From Candidatus Poribacteria bacterium (lineage in GTDB: Bacteria; Poribacteria; WGA-4E; GCA-2687025): a stretch of 64,000 nucleotides of DNA. A program made the translations under genes and the position numbers. The stretch is from positions 1,184,001 to 1,248,000 of the forward strand of contig OY762492.1 of the NCBI GenBank assembly GCA_963665845.2, written 5' to 3'. A model generated the notes under the pieces. The model was not told the DNA's origin, did not search any database, and saw nothing but the letters and a program-made list of their open reading frames with translations. Shown here piece after piece: positions 748 through 18,314 of the stretch. Positions within the stretch are counted from its first letter, which is position 1. Each line of letters begins with the position of its first letter.

Positions 748-775
748 TTGACAATCCAAGCGTATGGAGTATCAT
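748..775 (+). promoter_or_regulatory. sigma70-like promoter of argC
   Basis: TTGACA-16 nt-TATCAT, followed by SD AGGAGG and ATG at 799. Confidence 0.55.
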
Positions 776-798: not shown

Positions 799-1842
799 AT
801 GAAAATCGCCATTGTCGGAGCGACCAGTTACACCAGCGTCGAATTGATACGCCTGCTCGCCGCGCATCCGGGCGGGATCGATCTTGCCGTTCTCACCTCG
901 CGCACCGAAGCGGGCCGCCCCATCGTCGACTTCGCGCCGAACCTGCGCGGATACTGCGATTTGACGCTGGAGACGACCGCCGTTGAGACGCTGACAGGGC
1001 GCGTTGACGCCGCCGTACTTGCCGTCCCGCACCGCGCCGCGATGGAGTACGCCCCCGCGCTGCTGAACGAAGGCGTCCGCGTCCTGGATTTCAGCGCCGA
1101 CTACCGCCTCAAAGAGGTCTCCACCTATGAACGCTGGTACGACGCCGAGCATACCAGCCCCGAGCTGCTGCCGTCCGCCGTGTACGGTTTGCCGGAACTG
1201 TACCGTCAGAAAATCGCCGGCGCGGACCTTGTCGCCAATCCTGGCTGTTACCCGACGAGCGCCGTTTTTGCGTTACTTCCCGCCGTCGAGGAGCGTATGA
1301 TCGACATGGGCGGGATTGTTGTCGACTCGAAGTCTGGGCTGTCGGGCGCGGGGCGCAAGCTGAATGAAAAGATTCTGTTTTCGTCGCGGCAAGAAAATGT
1401 CGCCGCATACGGTATCGCCTCGCACCGCCACACGCCTGAAATGGAGCAGGAGCTGCAAGCGGCAAGCGGCAACCCTGATCTGCGCGTCGGGTTCACTCCC
1501 CATTATATGCCGATGACGCGCGGCATTCTGACGGCGGCTTATGCCCCCTTGACGCGCCCGCTTTCGCTGGAGGAGATTCATGCATTTTATGAGCGGCGCT
1601 ACGCGAATGAGCCGTTCATACAGACGCTCCCGCCGGGCGAATCCGCCGAAACGAAGGCGGTTTACGGCAGCAACAACGTCCATGTCGGCGTTGCGGTTGA
1701 TGAGCGCGTGAACAGGCTGATTGTCACGTGCGCGCTGGACAACCTCGGCAAAGGAGCCGCCGGCGCCGCGCTGCAGAACCTGAACCTGATGGCAGGGCTG
1801 GACGAGACGGCGGGGCTGCGCTTCCCGGGCGTCATGCCGTAG
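799..1842 (+). CDS. argC: N-acetyl-gamma-glutamyl-phosphate reductase
   Basis: MKIAIVGATSYT Rossmann start, VANPGCYPT catalytic motif, DNLGKGAAG motif; strong SD before 799. Confidence 0.97.
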   Translation: MKIAIVGATSYTSVELIRLLAAHPGGIDLAVLTSRTEAGRPIVDFAPNLRGYCDLTLETTAVETLTGRVDAAVLAVPHRAAMEYAPALLNEGVRVLDFSADYRLKEVSTYERWYDAEHTSPELLPSAVYGLPELYRQKIAGADLVANPGCYPTSAVFALLPAVEERMIDMGGIVVDSKSGLSGAGRKLNEKILFSSRQENVAAYGIASHRHTPEMEQELQAASGNPDLRVGFTPHYMPMTRGILTAAYAPLTRPLSLEEIHAFYERRYANEPFIQTLPPGESAETKAVYGSNNVHVGVAVDERVNRLIVTCALDNLGKGAAGAALQNLNLMAGLDETAGLRFPGVMP

Positions 1843-1853
1843 AAAGACGCAGG

Positions 1854-3056
1854 ATGAACCTGAAAAATCGGACGCTGTTTATCGCGGACAATCTGGACAT
1901 CATGCGCGGGATCGATTCGGAGAGCGTCGACCTGATTTATCTGGACCCGCCTTTCAACAAGAAGAAGCGGTTTAAGGCGCCCATCGGATCCCCTGCTGAA
2001 GGGGCGACATTCAAGGACATTTGGACAGACGAAGACGTCAAAGAGGAATGGCGCGGAGAAATCGCTGCCCAGCATCAAGACCTGTACGGCGCAATCAAAT
2101 TGGTCGGCTCCATCTACGACGAGTCGATGGCGATCTACATGACGGCGATGTCGATCCGTCTTTTTGAAATGCAGCGCATCTTGAAAAAAACGGGCAGCGT
2201 CTATCTCCATTGCGATCCGACAGCGAGCCATTACCTGAAAATCTGCATGGACAGCATCTTCGGAAAATCCAGTTTCCAAAACGAAATCGCATGGGCTTAC
2301 CGCACAGGCGGCGTGAGTAAAAAACGATGGCCTCGAAAGCATGACACGATTCTGTTCTATGCAAGCTCGAACGCTTACCGCCATCAGCCGCCAAAGGAAA
2401 GAATCTATTACGAGAAACCGTTTTTTTCCCAAAACCAAGACGATGAAGGGCGCCATTACGCTGACGTCTATGTTCGAGACGTTTGGGACGACATTAAGCC
2501 GATTATCAACACATCCAAAGAGCGCACCGGCTGGCCGACGCAGAAGCCGCTGACGCTGTTAGAGCGCATTATCAAAGCCTCTTCGAACGAAGGGGATCTT
2601 GTGTTTGACCCGTTCTGCGGCTGCGCGACGGCATGCGTCGCCGCCGAACTTCTAGGGCGGCGTTGGGTCGGCATTGACATATCGGCCAGCGCCGAGGTGA
2701 TCACAAAATACCGCCTGGATGAGGCGCGGCATAATCTGGAAGGGACGCAAACCTTCGACCCTGAAGCGGATGTGATCGTCCTGCGCGAGCCGCCGAAGCG
2801 CACCGACATCCAGATTCCGAAGCCGATTGAACATAAACCGGCTCTCTACGGCAAACAGAACGGAGAATGCGCAGGCTGCAAGATTCATTTTCCGTATCGG
2901 AACATGACAATCGACCATATCCATCCGCGCGCTAGAGGCGGCGCCGACACGCCCGACAACTTGCAGCTGCTGTGCCACGCCTGCAACTCTGCCAAGGGAA
3001 CAGGGACGCAGGAGGAGCTGTTAGCGAAGTTGCGCGATCGGGGCGTTATTGAATAA
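1854..3056 (+). CDS. beta-class N6/N4 DNA methyltransferase fused to C-terminal HNH endonuclease, copy 1
   Basis: LIYLDPPF (motif IV) precedes FDPFCGCAT (motif I); PTQKP motif; C-terminal CxxC...DHIHP...GG...NLQLLCxxCN HNH/Zn fold. Confidence 0.9.
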   Translation: MNLKNRTLFIADNLDIMRGIDSESVDLIYLDPPFNKKKRFKAPIGSPAEGATFKDIWTDEDVKEEWRGEIAAQHQDLYGAIKLVGSIYDESMAIYMTAMSIRLFEMQRILKKTGSVYLHCDPTASHYLKICMDSIFGKSSFQNEIAWAYRTGGVSKKRWPRKHDTILFYASSNAYRHQPPKERIYYEKPFFSQNQDDEGRHYADVYVRDVWDDIKPIINTSKERTGWPTQKPLTLLERIIKASSNEGDLVFDPFCGCATACVAAELLGRRWVGIDISASAEVITKYRLDEARHNLEGTQTFDPEADVIVLREPPKRTDIQIPKPIEHKPALYGKQNGECAGCKIHFPYRNMTIDHIHPRARGGADTPDNLQLLCHACNSAKGTGTQEELLAKLRDRGVIE

Positions 3057-3068
3057 GGGAGAGCGAAC

Positions 3069-4280
3069 ATGAACCTGAAAAATCGGACGCTGTTTATCGC
3101 CGACAATCTGGACATCATGCGCGGGATCGATTCGGAGAGCGTTGACCTGATCTATCTTGACCCGCCCTTCAACACGAAGCGGGAGTATAAAGCTCCGATC
3201 GGATCGCCCGCTGAAGGCGCGACTTTCAAAGACATCTGGACAGACGAAGACGTCAAGGAAGAGTGGCGCGGGGAAATCGCTGCCCAGCATCAAGACCTGT
3301 ATGAAGTCATTAAAGCGGCGGACGCGCTCTACGATCCATCGATGTCGATCTACATGACCGCTATGGCTGTCCGTCTTTTTGAAATGAAGCGCATTTTGAA
3401 AAAAACGGGGTGCGTTTACCTGCATTGCGACCCGACAGCGAGCCACTACCTTAAGATCATTATGGACTCGATCTTCAAGGCAGGGAATTTCCAAAGCGAG
3501 GTGATATGGGGGTATCGGACGCAGGGCGTGAGCAAAGCGAGATGGCCCAGAAAGCATGATGTGCTTTTACATTACGGCGGCGGAAAGAAGCCGACCTTCC
3601 ATCCGCAGATGCAGCGACTCATCTATGAAAAGCCGTTTCGCCATACGAAAATAGACGAGGAGGGGCGGCATTATGCGGATGTGTATGTGCGGGATGTTTG
3701 GGACGACGACCCTGAAACGAAGGCTCTAATCAGCCAGTCTCTAGAGCGCACCGGCTGGCCGACGCAGAAACCGTTGGCGCTGCTGAAGCGCATTATCAAG
3801 GCGTCCTCCAACGAAGGCGATCTTGTGTTTGATCCGTTCTGCGGCTGCGCGACCGCATGCGTCGCCGCGGAGCTTCTAGGGCGGCGATGGGTCGGCATCG
3901 ATATTTCTCCAAGCGCGGAGGTCATCACGAAATACCGGCTGGACGAGGCGCGGCATAACCTGGAAGGAACGCAAACCTTCGACCCAGAAGCGGATGTGAT
4001 CGTTCTGCGCGAACCGCCGAAACGTACCGATATTCAGATTCCAAAGCCGATTGAACATAAACCGGCTCTCTACGGCAAACAGAACGGAGAATGCACAGGC
4101 TGCAAGATTCATTTTCCGTATCGGAACATGACGATCGACCATATCCATCCGCGCGCTAGAGGCGGCGCCGACACGCCCGACAACCTGCAGCTGCTGTGCC
4201 ATGCATGCAACTCGGCTAAAGGAACCGGGACCCAAGAGGAGCTGTTAGTGAAGTTGCGCGAGCGCGGCGTTATCAAATAA
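3069..4280 (+). CDS. DNA methyltransferase-HNH fusion, copy 2
   Basis: Same motifs as copy 1 with a different central segment; preceded by spacer taagggagagcgaacATG. Confidence 0.9.
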   Translation: MNLKNRTLFIADNLDIMRGIDSESVDLIYLDPPFNTKREYKAPIGSPAEGATFKDIWTDEDVKEEWRGEIAAQHQDLYEVIKAADALYDPSMSIYMTAMAVRLFEMKRILKKTGCVYLHCDPTASHYLKIIMDSIFKAGNFQSEVIWGYRTQGVSKARWPRKHDVLLHYGGGKKPTFHPQMQRLIYEKPFRHTKIDEEGRHYADVYVRDVWDDDPETKALISQSLERTGWPTQKPLALLKRIIKASSNEGDLVFDPFCGCATACVAAELLGRRWVGIDISPSAEVITKYRLDEARHNLEGTQTFDPEADVIVLREPPKRTDIQIPKPIEHKPALYGKQNGECTGCKIHFPYRNMTIDHIHPRARGGADTPDNLQLLCHACNSAKGTGTQEELLVKLRERGVIK

Positions 4281-4292
4281 GGGAGAGCGAAC

Positions 4293-5555
4293 ATGAACCT
4301 GAAAAATCGGACGCTGTTTATCGCCGACAATCTGGACATCATGCGCGGGATCGATTCGGAGAGCGTTGACCTGATTTATCTGGACCCGCCTTTCAACAAG
4401 AAAAAGCGGTTTAAGGCGCCCATCGGATCTCCCGCTGAAGGGGCGACATTCAAGGACATTTGGACAGACGAAGACGTCAAAGAAGAGTGGCGCGGGGAAA
4501 TCGCGTCGCGGCATCAAGACCTGTATGACAACATCCAAACGGCGGGAAAGATTTACGATCCGTCAATGGCGATCTACATGACGGCGATGTCGGTGCGCCT
4601 CTTTGAAATGCGGCGGATTTTGAAAAAGACCGGCAGCATCTACCTGCATTGCGACCAGACGGCGAACCATTACCTGAAAGTCTGTATGGACGCCATCTTC
4701 GGCAAAAACAACTTTCGCAACGAGATCATCTGGGCGTATAAGGGTCCGTCCAACGTCCGCCGCTGGTTTCCTAGAAAACATGATGTCGTCCTGTTTTATG
4801 TCAAGTCGAGAGCCGCTGCCTTCAATGCGGACGCTGTCCGCATCCCTTACAGCGAATCGTTCACTGCCAGAAGACAATACGACGAAGGCGAAGCGGGCAT
4901 CACAGCTGGCTATGCTGACGGCAGAACAGAAGAGGAAGTCTCGGAGCTGTTTGGGAATGGAAAAATTATCGAAGACTGGTGGGACGATATACCGAGCGGC
5001 GGACATATCAGCCGAAAAGAGCGCACCGGCTGGCCGACGCAGAAGCCGCTCAAGCTGTTAGACCGCGTCATCAAGGCGTCCTCCAACGAGGGCGATCTTG
5101 TGTTTGATCCGTTCTGCGGCTGCGCGACAGCATGCGTCGCCGCGGAACTTCTGGGCAGGCGTTGGGTCGGCATCGACATATCGGCCAGCGCGGAGGTGAT
5201 CACAAAATACCGCCTGGATGAGGCGCGGCATAACCTGGAAGGGACGCAAACCTTCGATCCTGAAGCGGATGTGATCGTTCTGCGCGAACCGCCGAAGCGT
5301 ACCGATATTCAGATTCCGAAGCCGATTGAACATAAACCGGCGCTCTACGGCAAACAGAACGGAGAATGCGCAGGCTGCAAGATTCATTTTCCGTATCGGA
5401 ATATGACAATTGACCATATACGCCCGCGCGCTAGAGGCGGCGTTGACACCGTCGACAACCTGCAGCTGCTGTGCCACGCCTGCAACTCCGCCAAAGGGAC
5501 CGGGACGCAGGAGGAGCTGATAGCGAAGTTGCGCGAGCGGGGCGTTATTGAATGA
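4293..5555 (+). CDS. DNA methyltransferase-HNH fusion, copy 3
   Basis: Same motifs; longest central segment; identical spacer taagggagagcgaacATG. Confidence 0.9.
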   Translation: MNLKNRTLFIADNLDIMRGIDSESVDLIYLDPPFNKKKRFKAPIGSPAEGATFKDIWTDEDVKEEWRGEIASRHQDLYDNIQTAGKIYDPSMAIYMTAMSVRLFEMRRILKKTGSIYLHCDQTANHYLKVCMDAIFGKNNFRNEIIWAYKGPSNVRRWFPRKHDVVLFYVKSRAAAFNADAVRIPYSESFTARRQYDEGEAGITAGYADGRTEEEVSELFGNGKIIEDWWDDIPSGGHISRKERTGWPTQKPLKLLDRVIKASSNEGDLVFDPFCGCATACVAAELLGRRWVGIDISASAEVITKYRLDEARHNLEGTQTFDPEADVIVLREPPKRTDIQIPKPIEHKPALYGKQNGECAGCKIHFPYRNMTIDHIRPRARGGVDTVDNLQLLCHACNSAKGTGTQEELIAKLRERGVIE

Positions 5556-5627
5556 GCGGCGCTCAATGGACAACTGCGAGCTTTTACGTTATTCTTATGG
5601 TGTCAGGCGAAATAGAAAGGATGCAGC

Positions 5628-5933
5628 ATGGCGACCATTACGCGCGTTTCCGGCGGATTTAAGAACGATGCGCTGTCTTTGAAAATTACAAGCGGATCGT
5701 TGATTGAGTGGACAGACAGCCGCGGCGTCGGAAACTGGATCGTAGTGGAAGCGAACGGAACGCTTGAAGGCCAATGCTCATTCGGCGGCGGTCTTGGCGA
5801 TGTGAAGCTGATTTCTGAAGACAAGGTGTTTGTCGGGCAAGCGCTGATCAAACACGCGCAGATAACGCCGATGTCGACACGATTTGATCTGCTGGGAACG
5901 GACGATCTTGTACGTCAAAGGCTGGAGCCGTGA
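5628..5933 (+). CDS. Hypothetical 101-aa protein inside the MTase-HNH array
   Basis: SD gaaagga upstream; its stop overlaps the GTG start of copy 4 (GTGA coupling). Confidence 0.6.
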   Translation: MATITRVSGGFKNDALSLKITSGSLIEWTDSRGVGNWIVVEANGTLEGQCSFGGGLGDVKLISEDKVFVGQALIKHAQITPMSTRFDLLGTDDLVRQRLEP

Positions 5934-7150
5934 ATCTCAAAAATCGCACGCTGTTTATCGCCGACAATCTGGACATCATGCGCGGGATCGATTCCGAAAG
6001 CGTTGACCTGATTTATCTTGACCCGCCCTTCAACACGAAACGGGAGTATAAAGCCCCCATCGGATCGCCCGCTGAAGGCGCGACTTTCAAAGACATTTGG
6101 ACAGACGAAGACGTCAAAGAAGAATGGCGCGGAGAGATCGCGTCGCGGCATCAGGATTTATACGAAGCCATCAAAGCGACCGAGACGATTTACGACAGGT
6201 CAATGGCGATCTACATGACCTCCATGTCGATCCGTCTTTTTGAGATGCGGCGCATCTTGAAAGATACGGGAAGCATTTACCTGCATTGCGACCCGACAGC
6301 GAGCCACTACCTCAAAACATGCATGGACAGCATTTTTGGAAAATCCAATTTCCGAAATGAGATCGTGTGGTGGTACTACAATGTCGCCGTCACCAGCAAA
6401 AAATTCTACGGCAGAAAGCACGACATCATCTTATTCTACTCAAAGAAATCGAACTGGACATTCAATCCTGACAGCGTCCGCGTTCCTTACGCGGAGGACA
6501 GCAACTGGGTCAAAAATGCGGAAAGCTACGGAGACGAGCGGTATAAGCCAGACGAGAGAGGAAAATTGTCGTCCGACGTTTTTGCGATTCCAACCATAAA
6601 CAACATGGCTAAAGAGCGCACGGGTTGGCCGACTCAAAAGCCGTTGGCTCTTTTGGATCGGATCATCAAAGCGTCCTCCAAAGAAGGCGATTATGTGTTC
6701 GATCCGTTTTGCGGCTGCGCGACAGCATGCGTCGCCGCGGAACTTCTGGGCAGGCGGTGGGTCGGCATCGACATCTCCCCCAGCGCGGAGGTGATCACAA
6801 AATACCGCTTAGACGAAGCCCGCCATACGCTGGAAGGAACGCAGACCTTCGACCCTGAAGCGGATGTCATCGTCCTGCGCGAACCGCCGAAACGAACCGA
6901 CATCAAAGAGCCTCGCCCCGCCGATTTCAAACCGCAGCTCTACAGTAAGCAGAACGGAGAATGCACAGGCTGCAGGATTCATTTTCCGTATCGGAACATG
7001 ACGATAGACCATATCCGCGCAAAGTCGAGGGGCGGGCCGGACACCGTCGACAACCTGCAGCTGCTTTGCCACGCCTGTAACTCCGCCAAAGGGACCGGGA
7101 CGCAGGAGGAGCTGTTAGCGAAGTTGCGAGAGCGCGGCGTTATCGAATAA
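5930..7150 (+). CDS. DNA methyltransferase-HNH fusion, copy 4
   Basis: Same motifs, fourth distinct central segment; GTG start. Confidence 0.9.
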   Translation: MNLKNRTLFIADNLDIMRGIDSESVDLIYLDPPFNTKREYKAPIGSPAEGATFKDIWTDEDVKEEWRGEIASRHQDLYEAIKATETIYDRSMAIYMTSMSIRLFEMRRILKDTGSIYLHCDPTASHYLKTCMDSIFGKSNFRNEIVWWYYNVAVTSKKFYGRKHDIILFYSKKSNWTFNPDSVRVPYAEDSNWVKNAESYGDERYKPDERGKLSSDVFAIPTINNMAKERTGWPTQKPLALLDRIIKASSKEGDYVFDPFCGCATACVAAELLGRRWVGIDISPSAEVITKYRLDEARHTLEGTQTFDPEADVIVLREPPKRTDIKEPRPADFKPQLYSKQNGECTGCRIHFPYRNMTIDHIRAKSRGGPDTVDNLQLLCHACNSAKGTGTQEELLAKLRERGVIE

Positions 7151-7279
7151 ATTTGACACCAAGCTACGAATATGGCATGGTTATGTTCGGTCGTTCAGAT
7201 ACGCTGGGTCGCAAGAAACTTCAAGGTCGCGCGTTGCCTACTGAAGTAAGCTGACGCGCAAACACATAAGGGGTTCAAC

Positions 7280-7744
7280 ATGTGGGTGGTAAAAGAGGAT
7301 AAAGTTCATCTTTACTTTGTGGTATGGAATTCTCATATCCAGATCGCGGAGGACAACAACGCAAAACATGGGCGATCCGACAGCGCATTCGATTACGCCT
7401 TGAGAGAAATTCCAGGCATTGAACATCATGATGGGAGTCATGACGTTACCGCTGCATATCCGTTCTCTGATGGGGAACTCGTTCACGGAGAACGCTTAAA
7501 GGCATGGCTCAAAGCAGAAAGAGACGGCGACGATGTTGGTCCGATCGTTGTCGATATTACGAAGGATGGCAACGAGTGGAAAGCGGAGATTATTAACTTT
7601 GAACCTGACGCGGATGGAAGTCGCAGCAAAATCTATGGCAACAGAAGAAATACAAGCGACGATCCGCAAAGAGGTAGGAATAATTTAATAAGATTTTTGG
7701 AAGAATTAGCGGAAATAAAGCGAAATCAGAATGAACGCAGCTGA
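7280..7744 (+). CDS. Hypothetical protein in an AT-richer segment
   Basis: 154-aa ORF with SD-like aagggg; composition visibly more AT-rich than the flanking housekeeping genes. Confidence 0.6.
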   Translation: MWVVKEDKVHLYFVVWNSHIQIAEDNNAKHGRSDSAFDYALREIPGIEHHDGSHDVTAAYPFSDGELVHGERLKAWLKAERDGDDVGPIVVDITKDGNEWKAEIINFEPDADGSRSKIYGNRRNTSDDPQRGRNNLIRFLEELAEIKRNQNERS

Positions 7745-7855
7745 AGTGCTTTCTTTCAGTTTTTCGCTAGCCAAGGCCTGCATCCACACCGCCAAAAGAT
7801 AGCGCCCTCGCCCTCTTTGCGCTAAAATGCGTTTATCGCAAGTTGAGGGCAAAAC

Positions 7856-8800
7856 GTGAATATCCTCGTCCGCGGCGCATTCTACCGCCAATTTGAACAG
7901 CGGCTCAAAGAGGCGGCGCCGAACGCCCGCTTCATCCTCTTTGAAGACCGCGCGGAGATGCTGGAGCGCCTCCCAAAAGCGGACGCGCTCTACGGCGGCT
8001 CCCCGCGCGAGGACATGCTGGACCGCTGCGCCAAACTGCGCTGGATCCACATGCGCAGCGCCGGCGTCGACCGCTACTTTCCCCAACAGCTCGCCCAACG
8101 CGGCATCGCCCTCACGAACGGAAGCGGCGCCTACGACATCCCCATCGCCGAGCATGTGTTTGCGATGGCGCTGTCCCTCACCCGACAGATCAACCTGCAT
8201 ATACGCAACCAGCTTGAAAAGCGGTGGGAGCGCGGCGATAGACCCGCCGACCTGTACGGCAAAAACCTCGGCGTCTACGGCATGGGTTCCATCGGAACGC
8301 GCGTCGCGCAGATTGGAGCCGCCTTTGGAATGAAAGCGTACGGCGTCGCCCGCCGCGGACGTTCAAAGCCTGACTTTGCCGAAGCGTTATGGACGCCTGA
8401 TCGTTTAGACGACCTGCTGCGCCTGTCCGATCTGTTCGTCGTCTGCCTTCCGCTGACGAACGCGACGCGCAATTGCGTCGGCGCGCGCGAGTTTGGGTTG
8501 ATGAAGCAGACGGCGCTGTTCTTCAATATCGGGCGCGGCGCGACGGTGAACGCCGCCGCCTTGACGCGCGCCTTGACCGAAGGGCAGATTGCAGGCGCAG
8601 GGCTGGATGTAACAAACCCAGAGCCGCTGCCCGTAGAAAGCCCGTTGTGGGACATGCCGAATGTGATCTTGACGCCGCATGTCTCCGGGTCGTCCGCCGT
8701 CTCGGCGGAACGGGGGGAGGAGATCGCCATCGAGAATATACGCCGCTTCGCCGCCGGCGAACCGCTTTTGAATCTTGTCGACCCGCAGCATGGCTATTAA
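7856..8800 (+). CDS. D-2-hydroxyacid dehydrogenase family protein
   Basis: GMGSIG NAD-binding motif, NIGRG, GLDV..PEPLP, LTPHVSG. Confidence 0.93.
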   Translation: MNILVRGAFYRQFEQRLKEAAPNARFILFEDRAEMLERLPKADALYGGSPREDMLDRCAKLRWIHMRSAGVDRYFPQQLAQRGIALTNGSGAYDIPIAEHVFAMALSLTRQINLHIRNQLEKRWERGDRPADLYGKNLGVYGMGSIGTRVAQIGAAFGMKAYGVARRGRSKPDFAEALWTPDRLDDLLRLSDLFVVCLPLTNATRNCVGAREFGLMKQTALFFNIGRGATVNAAALTRALTEGQIAGAGLDVTNPEPLPVESPLWDMPNVILTPHVSGSSAVSAERGEEIAIENIRRFAAGEPLLNLVDPQHGY

Positions 8801-11207: not shown

Positions 11208-14200
11208 CTATTTCAACACAATCATGCGCCGAAGCCCCGTGAACGAACCCGCCTCAATGCGGACATAATAAATGCCGCTGGCGACAGGTTCGCCCAGGCT
11301 GTTCCGTCCGTCCCAATGGGCGGCTTTGGCGCGGCTGCGGTAGGCGCCCGCCGGCAACTGCCCAAGCTCCAACACGCGCACGGTTTGACCTGACGAGTTG
11401 TAGATCGTCACCCTCACGCGGCTTGAATCTGTCAACTCAAACGGGATCCAGGTTTCTGGGTTGAACGGGTTTGGGTAGTTCGGAAGCAGCGCCGGCTCGC
11501 TCGGTATGGCGGTCGCCAGCAGTTTGCCGATGTCCATGCGCCCCGAGGCGACAGACTCCTTGTCCAGAACGACGCGAACCGTTTGAACGCCGCCGAATGT
11601 CCCGCTCGAATCGAACACACGCAGATCAAAAGCGTCGCCGATGGCGTAGCTGTCCCCTGTCAACGCCAGAAGCGGCAGCGAGAAACGGCCAGAAATGGAG
11701 CCGCTGCCCGCCAGGTCAGACGCTGTCTGTCCAGTCTGCAGGTTCGCAATGGAAATCTCTAACCCGTTCAGCGGCGCGAGATTGTCCTCCCGCGCGACGG
11801 AACCCTCCACCACAAGAAGCGGCGTTGAGGACGGGTCGTACGCGACCGCCTCCGCGGACGCAGCGGCAGTCGCCGCGTCGTTTGACCATGCGGAGCCGTC
11901 GAAGGTCAAGACGGTTTCCGCTGCCGCCACGATAAAATAACCGTCGCCGCCCTTCGCCGCGTCGGTCGAGTCGGTGGAGAGCTGAAAAAGGGGGCTGCCG
12001 GCATCGTCATGCTTCAAGGCAATCACGGTCAGCGGAACGGTTGAAAGATCCGCCAAATCCCCGATGGTCTCAACGGCGCCGGCGCGCGTGACGCCGATCA
12101 TATTGATGCCGGCGCGCAGCGGAACTTCAGGCTTCAAAAGGCCGCCCATGAACGTGACCGACTTGGAATTCTTCATACTCACAAGCGCGCCCGCATGATC
12201 CAACAACGCCATTTCGCCAGCGGGGCCTGGAATGCCGGTGTAAGCGGCAAATTGTCCGTCTAGTTTCTGCGTCAGAATGTAGAGAACATCGCCGCTCCCG
12301 CCCAGCTTGTTGTACAGGTCGCCAACATTCTTTAAGCCGTCCACCTTCACAGGAACATGGATCAGATTCAACCCCTTTTTGAGCTGAAGCGTAAAGGAAG
12401 TCGTAGGCGCAAGTTCAACGAAGTAAATTTTTGTGACGCTTTCATTTCCATCAGCGGCGTTGTCCGGAATGATGACAATGACAATGCCTGAGCTGGACGG
12501 CGCAATTGTCGCTGTGTAGGAAGCGCCGGAGCCTGCGAACTCGGTTACGGTCCCGTTGACCACATCAATATCCGACTCTTCGAAGCCCGCGACCGCCTGA
12601 CTGAATTCGATCTCCAATTCAAATGGACCTGTTTGCGCCCCGCTCGGACCGGAGACGGTCACAGTTGGGCGGGCTGCAGGAACTTCAATGTCGCTGATGT
12701 CCCAGATCCGAATCGTGTTGTCGTCGCTGCCGCTGGCAAGCGACTGACCATCCGGTGAATACGCCACGGAACTGACACTACCCGTATGCCCTTGGAGGGT
12801 TCGTATCAGCGCTCCCGTGTTGGCGTTCCAGATGCGTATCTCGTTAAAGCTGCCGCCGGCGATGGTCTGACCATCCGGTGAATACGCCACGGAAGCGATC
12901 AAATGCCCATGTCCTTGGAGGGTTCGTATCAGCGCTCCCGTGTTGGCGTTCCAGATGCGGATCGTGTCGCTGCCGCTGGCGATGGTCTGACCATCCGGTG
13001 AATACGCCACAGAAAAGACCGAAATCGTATGTCGGATGGTTCTGATATGCGCTCCCGTGTTGGCGTTCCAGATCCGAACCGTGTTGTCTCTGCTGCCGCT
13101 GGCGATCGTCTGGCCATCCGGTGAATATGCCACAGAAAAGACATCACCAATACGCTCTGAAAGCCTTCGTATCTGCGCTCCCGTGTTGGCGTTCCAGATA
13201 CGTATCGTGTCGTCATAGTCGCCGCTGGCGATCGTCTGACCATCCGGTGAATACGCCACAGAAAAGACCCAACTCGTATGTCCCTGGAGGGTTCGTATCT
13301 GCGCTCCTGTGTTGGCGTTCCAGATCCGAACCGTGGAGTCGTAGCTGCCGCTGGCGAGCGACTGACCGCCCGGAGAATACGCCACAGAACTGACCCAATA
13401 CGTATGTCCCTGGAGGGTTCGTATCTGCGCTCCTGTGTTGGCGTTCCAGATCCGAATCGTGTTGTCAAGGCTGCCGCTGGCGAGCGACTGACCATCCGGT
13501 GAATACGCCACAGACAAGACTGCAGCCGTATGTCCTGTAAGGACCCGCGGCCCTCCGGTATCAGCGTTGACAGAGTAGGAGTTGGAAGCGGTGTTGTTCC
13601 CCGCGGCGTTGGCGGGGACGCTCACTGTAACGGTTCCGGAGCTGGACGGCTGAATCGTCGCCGTGTAGCTTGCGCCGCTGACGGCAAGGTCGATCACCGA
13701 GCCGTTCGTCACAACGATGTCGGACGACGTGAAACCTGTGACGGCGGAGCTGAACGCGATCGTCACATTGAACGCGCCTGTTTGCGTCCCGCTCGGACCG
13801 GAGACGGTCACAGTTGGGCGGGCTGCAGGAACTTCAATGTCGCTGATGTCCCAGAGGCGTATCGTCCTGTGGCCGTCCCCGCTGGCGAGCGACTGACCAT
13901 CCGGCGCATACGCTACGGAATTGACATCTCCCGCATGACCTGTAAGCGTTCGTATGTGCGCGCCAGTGTTGGCGTTCCAGATGCGTATCTTGGCGTCGTA
14001 GCCGCCGCTGGCGATCGTCTGACCATCCGGTGAATACGCCACAGACCTGACCCCATCCGTATGCCCTGTAAGCGTTCGTATCTGCGCTCCCGTGTTGGTG
14101 TTCCAGATGCGTATGCCTCTCCAGTTGCCGCTGGCGATCGTTTGACCATCCGGTGAATACGCCACAGAATAGACAGCAATCGTATCTCCTGTCAGCGTTC

Positions 14201-17200
14201 GTATCAGCGCTCCCGTGTTGGCGTTCCAGATGCGTATCGCGCCGTCATAGCTGCCGCTGGCGATCGTTTGACCATCCGGTGAATAAGCCACGGAACTGAC
14301 ACCATTCGTATGCCCTGTCAGCGTTCGTATCAGCGCTCCCGTGCTGGCGTTCCAGATGCGCATCGTGTTGTCGCGGCTGCCGCTGGCGATGGTCTGACCA
14401 TCCGGTGAATACGCCACGGAAAGGACCCGATCTGTATGTCCCTGGATGGTTCGTATCTGCGCGCCTGTGCTGGCGTTCCAGATGCGTATCCTGCCTCCCC
14501 AGCTGCCGCTGGCGATCGTCTGGCCGTCCGGTGAATACGCCACGGACGAGACACCAGACGTATGCCCTGTCAGCTCTCGTATCTGCGCTCCCGTGTTGGG
14601 GTTCCATATGCGTATCGAGCTGCTGGAGCTGGCGAGCGACTGACCATCCGGTGAATACGTCACGGAAAAGACACCGCCGTTATGGGCTGTCCAGACTCGC
14701 GGCCCTCCGGTTTCAGCGTTGACAGAGTAGGCGCTGGAGGCGGTGTTGTTCCCCGCGGCGTTGGCGGGAACTCTCACTGTAACGGCTCCGGAGCTGGACG
14801 GCTGAATCGTCGCCGTGTAGGATGCGCCGCTGCCGGTCAAGCTTGTCACGGAGCCGTTCGTCACAACGATGTCGGACGACGTGAAACCTGTGACGGCGGA
14901 GCTGAACGCGATCGTCACATTGAACGCGCCTGTTTGCGTACCGCTCGGACCAGACACGGTTGCCGTTGGGCGGGCTGCAGGAACTTCAATGTCGCTGATG
15001 TCCCAGATCCGAACCGTGTTGTCGTCGCTGCCGCTGGCGAGCGACCGACCGTCCGGTGAATACGCCACGGTACGCGCCACAGCCGTATGCCCTGTAAGCG
15101 TTCGTATCAGCGCGCCAGTATTGGCGTTCCAGATCTGTACTATACCTCCCCCACTGTTGCTGCCCCCGCCGCCGGCGATCGTCTGACCGTCCGGAGAATA
15201 CGTCACAGAAAAGACAGCTCTATGCTGTTGAGTTTGGAGATGCGCTCCCGTGTTGGCGTTCCAGATGCGGATCGGCGGGTTGCCGCCGCTGCCGCTGACG
15301 ATCGTCTGACCATCCGGCGCATACGCCACGGACAAGACATTGCCCGTATGTCCTGAAAGCGTTCGTATCTGCGCGCCAGTGTTGGCGTTCCAGATGCGGA
15401 TCGCGGCGTCGTAGTCGCTGCTGGCGATCGTCTGACCATCCGGCGCATACGCCACGGAACTGACCCAATCCGTATGTCCCTGAAGGGTTCGTATCAGCGC
15501 TCCTGTGTTGGCGTTCCAGATGCGTATCGTGTTGTCCCAGCTGCCGCTGGCGATGGTCTGACCATCCGGAGAATACGCCACGGAACTGATGTGACTTGTA
15601 TGCCCTTGGAGAGTTCGTATCAGCGCTCCTGTGTTGGCGTTCCAGATGCGTATCGTCTTGTCAACGCTGCCGCTGGCGATCGTCTGACCATTCGGAGAAT
15701 ACGCCACTGACATGACATAATGTGTATGCCCTGTCAGAGTTCGTATCAGCGCTCCCGTGTTGGCGTTCCAGATGCGTATCGTGCGGTCGCTGCTGGCGCT
15801 GGCGATCGTCTGACCGTTCGGTGAATACGCCACAGACACGACTCCATCCGTATGCCCTGTCAGGACCCGCGGTCCTCCGGTATCAGCGTTGGCAGAGTAG
15901 GTATTGGAAGCGGTGTTGTTCCCCGCGGCGTTGGCGGGGACGCTCACCGTAACAGTTCCGGAGCTGGACGGTTGAATCGTCGCCGTGTAGCTTGCCCCGC
16001 TGCCGGTAAAGCTTGTCACGGAGCCGTTCGTCACAACGATGTCGGACGATGTGAAATCCGTGACGGCGGAGCTGAATGAGATCGTCACATTGAACGCGCC
16101 TGTTTGCGTCCCGCTCGGACCGGAGACGGTCACAGTTGGGCGGGTTGCAGGAACTTCAATGTCGCTGATGTCCCAGATGCGTATCGTTCTGTCGCGACTG
16201 CAGCTGGCGAGCGACTGACCATTCGGCGCATACGCCACAGAAAGGACCCAATCCGTATGTCCCTGGAGGGTTCTGATATGCGCTCCTGTGTTGGCGTTCC
16301 AGATGCGTATCGTATCGTCAATGCTGCCGCTGGCGATCGTCTGACCATCCGGCGCATACGCCACAGAATTGACCCAATCAGTATGTCCCTGGAGGGTTCG
16401 TATCAGCGCTCCTGTGTTGGCGTTCCAGATGCGTATCGTATCGTCGTCGCTGCCGCTGGCGATCGTCTGACCATCCGGCGCATACGCCACGGAATAGATA
16501 AAACGCCCATGTCCTTGGAGGGTTCTGATATGCGCTCCTGTGTTGGCGTTCCAGATCCGGATCGTGTTGTCAAGGCTGCCGCTGGCGAGCGACTGACCAT
16601 CCGGCGCATACGCCGCGGACCTGACCACACCCGTATGCCCTGTAAGCGTTCGTATCAGCGCGCCAGTGTTGGCGTTCCAGATCCGAACCGTGTTGTCGTA
16701 TCTGCCGCTGGCGATCGTCTGACCATCCGGTGAATACGCCACAGAACTGACCCGAACTGTATGCCCCTGGAGGGTTTGTATATGCGCTCCCGTGTTGGCG
16801 TTCCAGATCCGGATCGTGTTGTCAAGGCTGCCGCTGGCGATCGACTGACCATCCGGCGCATACGCCACAGACAAGACATAATCCGTATGCCCTTGGAGGG
16901 TTCGTATATGCGCGCCAGTGTTGGCGTTCCAGATGCGTATCGTGTTGTCCCAGCCGCTGCTGGCGATCGTCTGACCGTTCGGTGAATACGCCACAGACAC
17001 GACTCCATCCGTATGCCCTGTCAGGACCCGCGGCCCTCCGGTTTCAGCGTTGACAGAGTAGGTATTGGAAGCGGTGTTGTTCCCCGCGGCGTTGGCGGGG
17101 ACGCTCACCGTAACGGCTCCGGAGCTGGATGGCTGAATGGTCGCCGTGTAGCTGGCGCCGCTGCCGGTCAAGCTTGTCACGGAGCCGTTTGTCACAGTGA

Positions 17201-18314
17201 TGTCGGACGACGTGAAACCTGTGACGGCGGAGCTGAACGCGATCGTCACATTGAACGCGCTTGTTTGCGTCCCGCTCGGACCGGACACGGTTGCCGTTGG
17301 GGTGATGTCCCAGAGGCGTATCGTGTTGTCGCCGCCGCCGCTGGCGATCGTCTCACCATCCGGTGAATACGCCACGGAACTGATGTGACTTGTATGTCCT
17401 TGGAGGGTTCTAATATGCGCTCCTGTGCTGGCGTTCCATATCCGAATCGTGTTTTCACTGCCGCCGCTGGCGATCGTTTCACCATCCGGCGCATACGCCA
17501 CGGAATTGACGGTAAAAATCGTAGGTCCTTGGAGGGTTCGTATCAGCGCGCCTGTGTTGGCGTTCCAGAGCCGAACCGTGGAGTCCCAGCTGCCGCTGGC
17601 GAGCGTCTGACCATCCGGAGAATATGCCACGGACCAGACATCATCCCCATGCCCTGTCAGCGTTCGTATCAGCGCTCCCGTGCTGGCGTTCCAGAGCCGA
17701 ACCGTGGTGTCGTAGCCCCCGCTGGCGATTGCCTGACCATCCGGAGAATACGTCAAGGATTGGACCCGATCTGTATGTCCTGTCAGCGTTCTGATATGCG
17801 CTCCTGTGCTGGCGTTCCAGAGCCGAATCTTGGAGTCGAAGCCGCCGCTGGCGAGCGTCTGACCATCCGGTGAATACGCTAAGGACAAGACTCCGTTCGT
17901 ATGTCCTGTCAGCGTTCTGATATGCGCTCCCGTGCTGGCGTTCCAGATACGAATCGTGGATTCGTTGTCGTTGTCGCTGCCGCTGGCGATGGTCTGACCA
18001 TCCGGCGAGTACGCTACGGGTCTGACCGTACTCGTATGCCCTGTCAGCGTTCTGATATGCGCTGCTGTGTTGGCGTTCCAGATGCGAACCGTGTTGTCGT
18101 AGCTGCCGCTGGCGATGGTCTGACCATCCGGCGAATACGCCACGGACACTACAACACCTGTATGCCCTGTCAGGACCTGTTGCGCGCTGCTGTTTTCAGC
18201 AACGAGGCAGACGCTCAGAAGCGCAGCCGCTAGGACAGCGGACCAAGCGGGGGTTACGTCACGTGTGAATTTCATGTGCGCGACACTCTTGATGTTGAAT
18301 CTGTGGAACCTCAT
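11208..18314 (-). CDS. Giant secreted WD40 protein: signal peptide, 5x[7-blade WD40 propeller + Ig-like domain], C-terminal FlgD-Ig/T9SS-type sorting domain
   Basis: 35 GH...[19 protein letters not shown] repeats; Ig spacers [31 protein letters not shown]; tail [19 protein letters not shown]...WDGRN..GE.VASGIY. Confidence 0.93.

Follow-up and report, generated by a model that had tools for sequence, protein, structure and literature searches.

Introduction

Enzymes such as MmeI, BpuSI, Eco57I, DrdV and BtgZI, described as Type IIC, IIG or IIL restriction-modification (R-M) systems, carry methylase and nuclease in one chain with one specificity module (PMC4081073; 10.1101/2021.01.06.425610). 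We describe here a tandem array of four genes of similar content, each encoding a β-class methylase fused to a zinc-binding HNH nuclease domain, in the genome of a Candidatus Poribacteria bacterium (hereafter G000); the window that we analysed is a stretch of 64,000 nucleotides (nt) from contig OY762492.1, positions 1,184,001 to 1,248,000. The four genes share one scaffold and differ in an internal cassette, and we consider that the array is probably a co-expressed battery of single-chain R-M enzymes, each predicted to methylate and cut its own sequence.

The array proteins agree with the Type IIC definition, both domains in one polypeptide, in domain content only (PMC4081073). Type IIG and IIL enzymes have an N-terminal PD-(D/E)xK nuclease, a γ-class methylase and a target recognition domain (TRD) at the C terminus, in about 1000 residues, with BtgZI as the one named exception (α-class with a C-terminal PD-(D/Q)xK variant; PMC4081073), whereas the array proteins are β-class with an internal cassette and a C-terminal Zn-HNH domain, are about 400 residues long and stand in tandem, and thus fall outside Type IIG/IIL. 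Type III mod genes offer a different parallel, as these are also β-class and their TRDs move between non-orthologous genes through conserved motifs, leaving incongruent trees (PMC3467074), and the Mbo45V locus likewise gathers several methylase genes, with one res and three mod (10.64898/2026.05.01.722158). However, no Res protein (a superfamily 2 ATPase-nuclease) lies beside the array, whose neighbours are argC, two short open reading frames (ORFs) and a dehydrogenase, and the locus is therefore not of Type III; every array gene brings a nuclease of its own, a long simple-sequence repeat switch was not seen, and the cassettes also move between fusions with different nucleases.

Fusions of Shedu (DUF4263) to N6_N4_MTase similarly join PF01555 to a nuclease and have been proposed, as a proposal only, to be one-protein equivalents of Type II R-M, although the nuclease is a different one and the available text mentions neither an array nor cassette exchange (10.1101/2023.08.10.552793). 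The methylases M.BceJIV, M1.MboII, M.RsrI and CcrM have the same motif order as the array proteins and base-reading loops that align with the cassette, but they have no fused nuclease and a canonical FxGxG motif, and the array proteins carry an extra helical insert of about 50 residues after DPPF relative to these solved β-class structures. Tandem libraries of variable modules with conserved flanks are also familiar from the orphan cassette arrays of contact-dependent inhibition (CDI) and Rhs systems and from Type I hsdS shufflons. In contrast to both, the members of this array are all full-length genes with start codons and are probably expressed, and no silent truncated cassettes, inverted repeats or recombinase adjoin it, so that it is not a shufflon.

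The logic of the array is best read as that of a Type IIC/IIG-like enzyme with Type III-style TRD movement, in a β-class/HNH layout that is, as far as we find, undescribed. We found no description of a β-class methylase-HNH fusion or of such arrays in the literature, in which subscription papers were thinly covered and supplements (e.g. the domain architectures of PMC5714182) may list the fusion; the available texts of PMC12707154, PMC5714182, PMC10305163 and 10.64898/2026.05.01.722158 do not describe it.

Results

Four genes with a common scaffold. Behind argC lie four stop-free methyltransferase-HNH genes, head to tail on one strand (Table 1), and the first-pass annotation, made from the sequence without database searches, was right to count four intact same-strand genes of 400-420 residues. 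It had also described each as a β-class amino-methyltransferase with a C-terminal Zn-HNH nuclease, which is borne out by three observations. Each protein matches Pfam N6_N4_Mtase (PF01555; E 3e-39 to 3e-50) and Pfam HNH (E 2e-14 to 5e-13), in both cases above cut-off. The motifs run from DPPF through the variable segment to DPFCG (31-34, 148-222 and, as DPFCGCAT, 252-259 in gene 1), which is the order of class β, in which motif IV (D/N/S-PP-Y/F/W) is followed by the TRD and motif I (PMC7544214). All four copies have the catalytic set D354, H355, N369 and N378 together with a Cys4 zinc site (C339/C342/C374/C377). The best PADLOC profiles for the array proteins are Type II methyltransferases, and PADLOC holds no dedicated profile for a methyltransferase-HNH fusion; no NCBIfam model scores above cut-off for either of the two copies searched. 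Gene 3, modelled with AlphaFold, has a mean predicted local distance difference test score of 92.6 and a predicted template modelling score of 0.87, dipping only at residues 191-210 in the cassette and 311-320 in the linker; its alignment held 97 sequences, of which 93 were database relatives chosen by length and the presence of both motifs, with most of those having damaged HNH sites left out.

Both catalytic centres look intact in sequence. The catalytic H, N and N are kept in 22 of the 23 HNH copies of this genome and in 110 of 125 HNH-bearing database relatives, and the ratio of nonsynonymous to synonymous divergence (dN/dS) over 10 pairs is about 0.08-0.21 in the HNH domain and 0.02-0.09 in the C-terminal part of the methylase. 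To judge from these rates, both centres are under purifying selection.

The variable segment is a predicted specificity module. The segment between NE(I/V)xW and ERTGWPTQKP, where the first-pass annotation had placed it, is only 25-55% identical among the four copies and is 75, 78, 95 and 81 residues long. Outside it, identity is 80-86% in the N part, 92-96% in the methylase C part and 84-96% in the tail, and residues 78-147 vary too (nonsynonymous divergence, dN, 0.12-0.23); over whole genes, genes 2, 3 and 4 are 84, 82 and 78% identical to gene 1. The flanks are thus close at the protein level, although the near-identity of DNA that had been claimed for them was overstated: the longest uninterrupted run of identity is 32-83 nt, depending on the pair compared. 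Similarly, the cassettes do differ, as had been noted, but those of genes 1 and 2 belong to one family at 55% identity.

The closest solved structures by sequence are M1.MboII (1g60), M.BceJIV (8urk/9c3u), M.RsrI (1eg2) and CcrM (6pbd), with E of 2e-23 to 4e-15 over 16 matches. In M.BceJIV the base readers are loop-45 (M136-G138), the TRD (167-194) and loop-6F (R203, H205, Q207) (PMC11380664), the numbering of that paper being the 8urk chain position plus one by our own count. Alignment with chain 8urk places these at approximately residues 149-157, 183-225 and 232-241 of gene 3, all within its cassette (148-242). Because the three reading elements span the cassette end to end, the exchanged unit is the whole predicted specificity module, and the suggestion that the variable segment occupies the TRD position is supported. 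The M.BceJIV dimer interface is made of helix C, strands 4-6 and loop-45 (PMC11380664); helix C and strand 4 correspond to residues 122-147, which are fairly conserved, and loop-45, β5 and β6 map inside the cassette. The predicted dimer interfaces of the four copies are thus similar but not identical as had been supposed, since three of the five interface elements fall within the variable cassette.

Cassettes and scaffolds have different histories. In a quick tree of 67 scaffold rows, the four copies and the single gene of the sister genome G001 (same genus, 91% complete) fall on one side of a branch with support of 100. In the cassette tree the four split four ways, and holding them together is rejected with an approximately unbiased (AU) test p of 1.6e-44; this tree used 23 of 147 segmentable proteins, picked as the nearest cassette matches, a choice that itself favours the rejection. 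The nearest relative of each cassette lies outside the array, in some cases in fusions with a different nuclease, and cassettes match these genes better than scaffolds do. Cassette 1 is 73% identical to that of protein P0112 (scaffold 33/45%), and cassette 2 is 90% identical to that of a G084 gene (scaffold 74/77%) and 85% to that of G025 (scaffold 76/82%). Cassette 3 is 62% identical to that of an Mrr-like fusion in G087 (scaffold 43/55%), and cassette 4 is 72% identical to those of two Mrr-like fusions (scaffold 41-42/58%) and 64-67% to those of five HNH fusions; of 14 loci examined for such matches, 10 were segmentable. G001 lacks close counterparts of cassettes 3 and 4, the best matches being 46% and 49%.

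We conclude from this comparison of sequences that the cassettes have been imported by recombination, because the two trees disagree and each cassette has its nearest relative elsewhere. The TRD tree is incongruent with that of the rest of the protein and TRD homologues occur in distant taxa, which is the pattern described for TRD movement between Type III mod genes (PMC3467074; PMC3983042). The proposal that constant flanks could allow TRD swapping is upheld to this extent, that exchange of cassettes has happened.

The array is not a fresh amplification. Synonymous divergence (dS) among the four scaffolds is 0.23-0.86 over codons 2-77, 0.84-1.55 over 78-147, 0.39-1.38 over 223-293 and 0.29-0.64 in the HNH domain. 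This matches or exceeds the divergence of the flanking genes between two species, since argC and the dehydrogenase differ between G000 and G001 at dS of 0.58 and 0.26. With scaffolds at least as diverged as genes between species, and with such short stretches of identity, the array is by sequence not a fresh amplification, and recent duplication with divergence of the cassettes in place was rejected on this dS and on the grouping of the cassettes with outside genes. Scaffold mosaicism among the four copies is weak (runs test p of 0.12 in the N part and 0.02 in the C part). The first-pass annotation had proposed comparing the argC-adjacent locus in relatives, and in G001 the same argC-dehydrogenase slot holds one copy against four here; its 5' flank is that of gene 1, its 3' flank that of gene 4, and it carries cassette 1. 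The repeated 12-nt junction suggests unequal crossing-over.

The array is unlikely to be a mis-assembly. That the array might be strain alleles of one gene joined in assembly, which the first-pass annotation had named as a possible refutation, has some points in its favour. G001 has a single copy at this site, no single record spans the whole array, so that gene order rests on the assembly, and in run X3 the depth of cassette 3 (15.5) is about half that of the flanks (28-29). However, alleles would split the flank depth, and cassette contigs do not lie at a quarter of it. In runs X1-X3, which belong to one study and may be the source of the assembly, contigs of cassettes and the inner spacer have depths of 27-30 against 21-32 for flanks in X1 and 42-53 against 40-46 in X2, among contigs listed that do not include cassette 1, and in X3 all four cassettes lie at 16-26. 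Contigs of run X5, from another study, are 92-98% identical and bridge both a stop-12 nt-start junction (2882-3131) and the junction of gene 3, the short ORF and gene 4 (5297-5992), with cassettes 3 and 4 covered as deeply as the flanks. Runs X7 and X8, from a further study, contain cassettes 1, 2 and part of 3 at 93-98%; contigs of X7 have no cover at 7225-7706 and low depth at cassette 4, which does not amount to absence. Mis-assembly was rejected on cassette depth and on the bridging contigs, and we give it a negligible probability: the depths are about single-copy, strains in other studies carry the same cassettes, and the array is, to the extent that contigs can tell, real.

In run X4, a low-depth strain (about 3) differs at 26 of 1230 positions in the argC region (300-1883), and the listed contigs of the array and right flank (3422-8105) match exactly, which suggests a recombination boundary at the start of the array.

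The same design occurs elsewhere in the genome and in other phyla. In the 4-Mb genome G000, 40 reading frames encode both halves of the methylase together with DPFCG. Of these, 23 carry an HNH domain and 15 a PD-(D/E)xK-like tail, which in the single case tested was confirmed as Pfam Mrr_cat; of the other two, one lacks a tail and the other is a frameshifted duplicate located on a small contig. They are mostly dispersed and include about six HNH scaffold lineages and several Mrr-like ones. Among 36 segmentable copies, 50 of the 53 paralogue pairs with scaffolds at least 80% identical have cassettes no more than 44% identical. In 18 dispersed copies, the shared sequence ends within about 100 nt of the coding region, and no transposon-like ends were seen around them. 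Crude random placement of 39 genes produced at least three same-strand copies within 2 kb steps in 0.3% of 20,000 trials.

The uniqueness of this array was considered and rejected, as there is a second array in G000 and there are others in G084, G176 and G177 (Table 1), so that arrays recur in three phyla with HNH, Mrr-like or GIY-YIG tails. Five arrays were compared (17 of 18 genes segmentable) and none repeats a cassette, the maximum identity being 55%. Among the 118 PF01555 matches listed for four genomes (35 others and G001 are not counted), G176 has two runs of at least three, G177 has one, G084 has three and G178 has none, and sequences were read for three of these six runs. The architecture of the array had not been recognised as a described system, and it does not stand alone: the same pattern of constant scaffold and variable cassette is present in the dispersed copies, and TRD movement between β-class genes has already been described (PMC3467074). 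In the 50% library, 3,327 proteins match at E below 1e-30, with an HNH domain in 125 of the best 150. Close versions of this array's own scaffold are confined to G000 and G001 out of 176 genomes of the phylum.

The proteins P0001 and P0045 contain three and two methylase units in one chain, each unit with a different cassette, and are possibly arrays fused into one reading frame; P0001 starts with a long unrelated domain. Near the second G000 array, about 2.6 kb away and on the opposite strand, is an IS1595 transposase.

Discussion

The reading that we favour supposes that each protein would dimerise through its methylase core, as β-class methylases do; in such dimers the TRD of one subunit faces the catalytic site of the other (PMC7544214, PMC11380664). 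Each cassette would read one short site, sites of the host would be methylated, and the tethered HNH domains would nick or cut incoming DNA that lacks methylation, with several sites perhaps needed for cutting as in Type IIL (10.1101/2021.01.06.425610). A swap of the cassette would change restriction and protection together, and exchange would be safe because one cassette would steer both methylation and cutting; a shared specificity module has been argued to enable domain exchange in Type IIG (PMC4081073). There is no separate restriction subunit among the neighbouring ORFs. The array may have arisen from a single gene behind argC by a duplication that gave the head-to-tail junction, after which unequal recombination through the conserved flanks, among related strains as well as within them, would have stacked copies and replaced cassettes from a pool common to many sponge-associated bacteria. 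Copies with different cassettes would likely be kept because each adds a specificity, making the battery an additive one. The first-pass annotation had arrived at a multi-specificity single-chain R-M battery, and this stands as the best reading in view of the cassette exchange and the intact, constrained sites, although methylation, cleavage and defence are predictions from sequence only.

Several observations weigh against this reading. Motif I reads F-C-G-C-A in all four copies, with alanine for the last glycine of the FxGxG consensus, and DPFCGCAT is found in 91 of the 125 HNH-bearing relatives; such a non-canonical motif leaves the use of S-adenosylmethionine not certain. Cutting can be dispensable in some members, because the HNH site is damaged in 15 of the 125 relatives, in one of the 23 genome copies and in one member of the G084 array. 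About 40 active restriction specificities in a cell would exceed the extremes named in the available text of PMC4081073 (up to 20), and one HNH site cuts one strand, so that double-strand cutting and protection of unmethylated daughter strands would have to be accounted for. The cassette tree was drawn from proteins whose selection leans towards the conflict that it reports. Lastly, the data do not choose between old copies kept here with collapse in G001 and stacking of alleles from related lineages.

The alternatives differ in what they make of the nuclease and of the spread of copies. The array could be a battery of methylases only, marking the genome for protection from restriction enzymes of neighbours or for regulation, with an HNH domain that binds or nicks without restricting. 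The damaged HNH sites would fit this, as would family members that lack a nuclease tail (one of the 40 in the genome) and the ease with which many copies could be tolerated if they did not cut. The conservation and constraint of the HNH residues noted above argue otherwise, and fusion of this methylase to three nuclease folds that are unrelated to one another suggests that cutting, and not one particular binding fold, has been selected; we regard this explanation as unlikely. It is still less probable that the methylase fold has weak catalytic activity and serves as a reader, directing the nuclease to foreign DNA that is modified in a Type IV-like mode of action, as in SRA-HNH or EVE-HNH proteins, and we would put this at a low probability. 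Mrr domains are used in modification-dependent nucleases. HNH and GIY-YIG domains are so used as well (PMC12707154), and motif I is non-canonical. The conservation and strong constraint of DPPF, D-P-F-x-G, PTQKP and the acidic residue that follows strand 2 (GID) speak against such a role, as do the best profile matches, which are methyltransferases, and the DPFCGCGT carried by the Mrr-like members.

Persistence of active R-M units through addiction, with loss of a copy exposing unmethylated sites, would explain the array without host defence, and we think this improbable. The 40 copies do appear to have been inserted gene by gene at unrelated sites, their shared sequence ending within roughly 100 nt of the coding region, and the same pool of cassettes extends across genera and phyla. 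However, a fused nuclease and methylase would be lost together and so give weaker post-segregational killing, and the same cassettes are kept in related strains that are 3-8% diverged. A mobility role for the HNH domain, in homing-like spread or as transposon cargo with the methylase protecting the donor site, could draw on the near-identical scaffolds dispersed at unrelated sites and on the resemblance of the HNH domain to that of IscB/Cas9. Those matches cover the generic HNH domain only and are far below cut-off, the dispersed copies share no element ends, and none of the 15 IS1595 (PF12762) matches in G000 is within about 70 kb of the array, the nearest being at about 72 kb, so that it is not an IS1595 passenger; we consider a mobility role very improbable.

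Within the battery reading, there is a further possibility that the four co-expressed paralogues pair into mixed dimers offering as many as twelve hybrid reading surfaces, each of which would methylate and cut a new site of its own, and that the same combinatorial design operates with HNH, Mrr-like and GIY-YIG tails across sponge-symbiont phyla. The idea, raised for heterodimers in the first-pass annotation, has a structural basis in that reading of a site by M.BceJIV combines the loops of one subunit with the TRD of its partner. However, most hybrid dimers would probably be poor readers, because the reading elements contact overlapping base pairs and travel as one unit and because part of the interface differs, and we hold combinatorial restriction to be unlikely. 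If it were true, the repertoire of specificities would grow faster than the number of genes and would be self-protecting by construction.

If the enzymes are active, they would represent a compact one-protein R-M design of 400 residues outside the described Type IIC layouts, with a plug-in specificity cassette of 75-140 residues that is naturally swapped between scaffolds, nucleases and phyla. An enrichment of sponge symbionts in R-M genes has long been noted (PMC5649159), and the 40 such genes in a 4-Mb genome would give a concrete identity to part of it. The host is likely a sponge-associated Poribacterium, as one of the runs containing a related strain carries the label sponge metagenome. 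With four cassettes on one scaffold, the array is also a natural controlled experiment for assigning cassettes to motifs, for engineering by swapping and for the question of heterodimer specificity.

Other features of the locus

The array is likely co-transcribed, given the σ70-like site upstream of argC and gaps of 11-72 nt between argC, the array genes and the 101-residue ORF, and this promoter likely drives argC and the array together. A scan for σ70 sites returned 5 against 4.8 expected in shuffles, and the site at 748..775 is the only one matching 11 of 12 consensus positions.

Table 1. Positions of the array, its parts and neighbours, and of comparable arrays; coordinates are those of the window unless a genome, contig or locus is named.
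Feature	Coordinates	Strand	Remarks
σ70-like promoter TTGACA-16-TATCAT	748..775	+	upstream of argC; 11/12, consensus match only
argC	799..1842	+	conserved left flank; syntenic in G001
Gene 1, methyltransferase-HNH fusion, 400 aa	1854..3056	+
Cassette 1 (loop-45 + TRD + loop-6F), 75 aa	2295..2519	+	95% to G001 single copy
Gene 1 Zn-binding HNH domain	2868..3002	+	each array gene ends with the same domain
Junction of genes 1/2, 12 nt	3057..3068	+	purine-rich ribosome-binding-like stretch
Gene 2, methyltransferase-HNH fusion, 403 aa	3069..4280	+
Cassette 2, 78 aa	3510..3743	+	relatives in text
Junction of genes 2/3, 12 nt	4281..4292	+	identical to the gene 1/2 junction
Gene 3, methyltransferase-HNH fusion, 420 aa	4293..5555	+
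Cassette 3, 95 aa	4734..5018	+	61-65% matches in five other genomes; 26-34% within array
101-aa ORF, no assigned function	5628..5933	+	stop overlaps gene 4 start (GTGA)
Gene 4, methyltransferase-HNH fusion, 406 aa	5930..7150	+	GTG start; most diverged scaffold of the four
Cassette 4, 81 aa	6371..6613	+	25-31% within array
154-aa ORF, no assigned function	7280..7744	+	variable slot; unrelated 190-aa ORF there in G001
2-hydroxyacid dehydrogenase	7856..8800	+	conserved right flank; syntenic in G001
Second G000 array, three methylase-Mrr-like genes	C1:2909152-2913640 (L082:5153-9626)	-	tails 98-99%, cassettes 18-23%, identical junctions
G084 array, three methylase-HNH fusions	L081:5355-9634		one member with cassette 2 (90%), another with Arg for the catalytic His
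G176 (alphaproteobacterial record), six tandem methylase-T5orf172 (GIY-YIG) genes	L039:4859-11769 (C1:1225009-1232261)		stop/start regions overlap
G176, second run of three	2708468-2712245
G177 (spirochaete record), three tandem methylase-T5orf172 fusions	L038:3052-7257		near-identical ~155 nt upstream region before each

The 101- and 154-residue ORFs have no family in Pfam, PADLOC or NCBIfam and no homologue in their own genome or the fetched loci; Atlas matches to the 101-residue ORF are all under 0.9, and it is also found in a related strain. Short ORFs of this kind, without an assigned function, stand behind methylase-HNH genes at both positions in the window and again at L021:8712-9284. 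After the last gene, the ORFs that occupy the slot are unrelated between G000 and G001, yet the first ~110 nt past the stop are common to both. The only candidate tract for phase variation is an A7 run in genes 1 and 2, and an insertion of one base at 3398, present in a single low-depth X4 contig, may be an error.

Upstream of argC, positions 620-745 contain a high-copy repeat of about 100-120 nt, part of it an inverted repeat, with 373 blastn segments in the genome; by eye it also seems to lie shortly upstream of about 7 of 18 dispersed methylase-HNH genes. Several words are strongly avoided in G000 relative to Markov expectation, among them GGCC (0.15), GAGCCC/GGGCAC (0.05-0.06), ACGCGT (0.14), CTCGGG (0.15), GATATC (0.24) and CTCAG (0.28); they resemble typical restriction sites, and nothing ties them to the array. 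On the minus strand, positions 11208-18314 encode a protein of 2368 residues in which, by eye from the translation, WD40-like blocks alternate with Ig-like spacers ahead of a C-terminal sorting-like domain.

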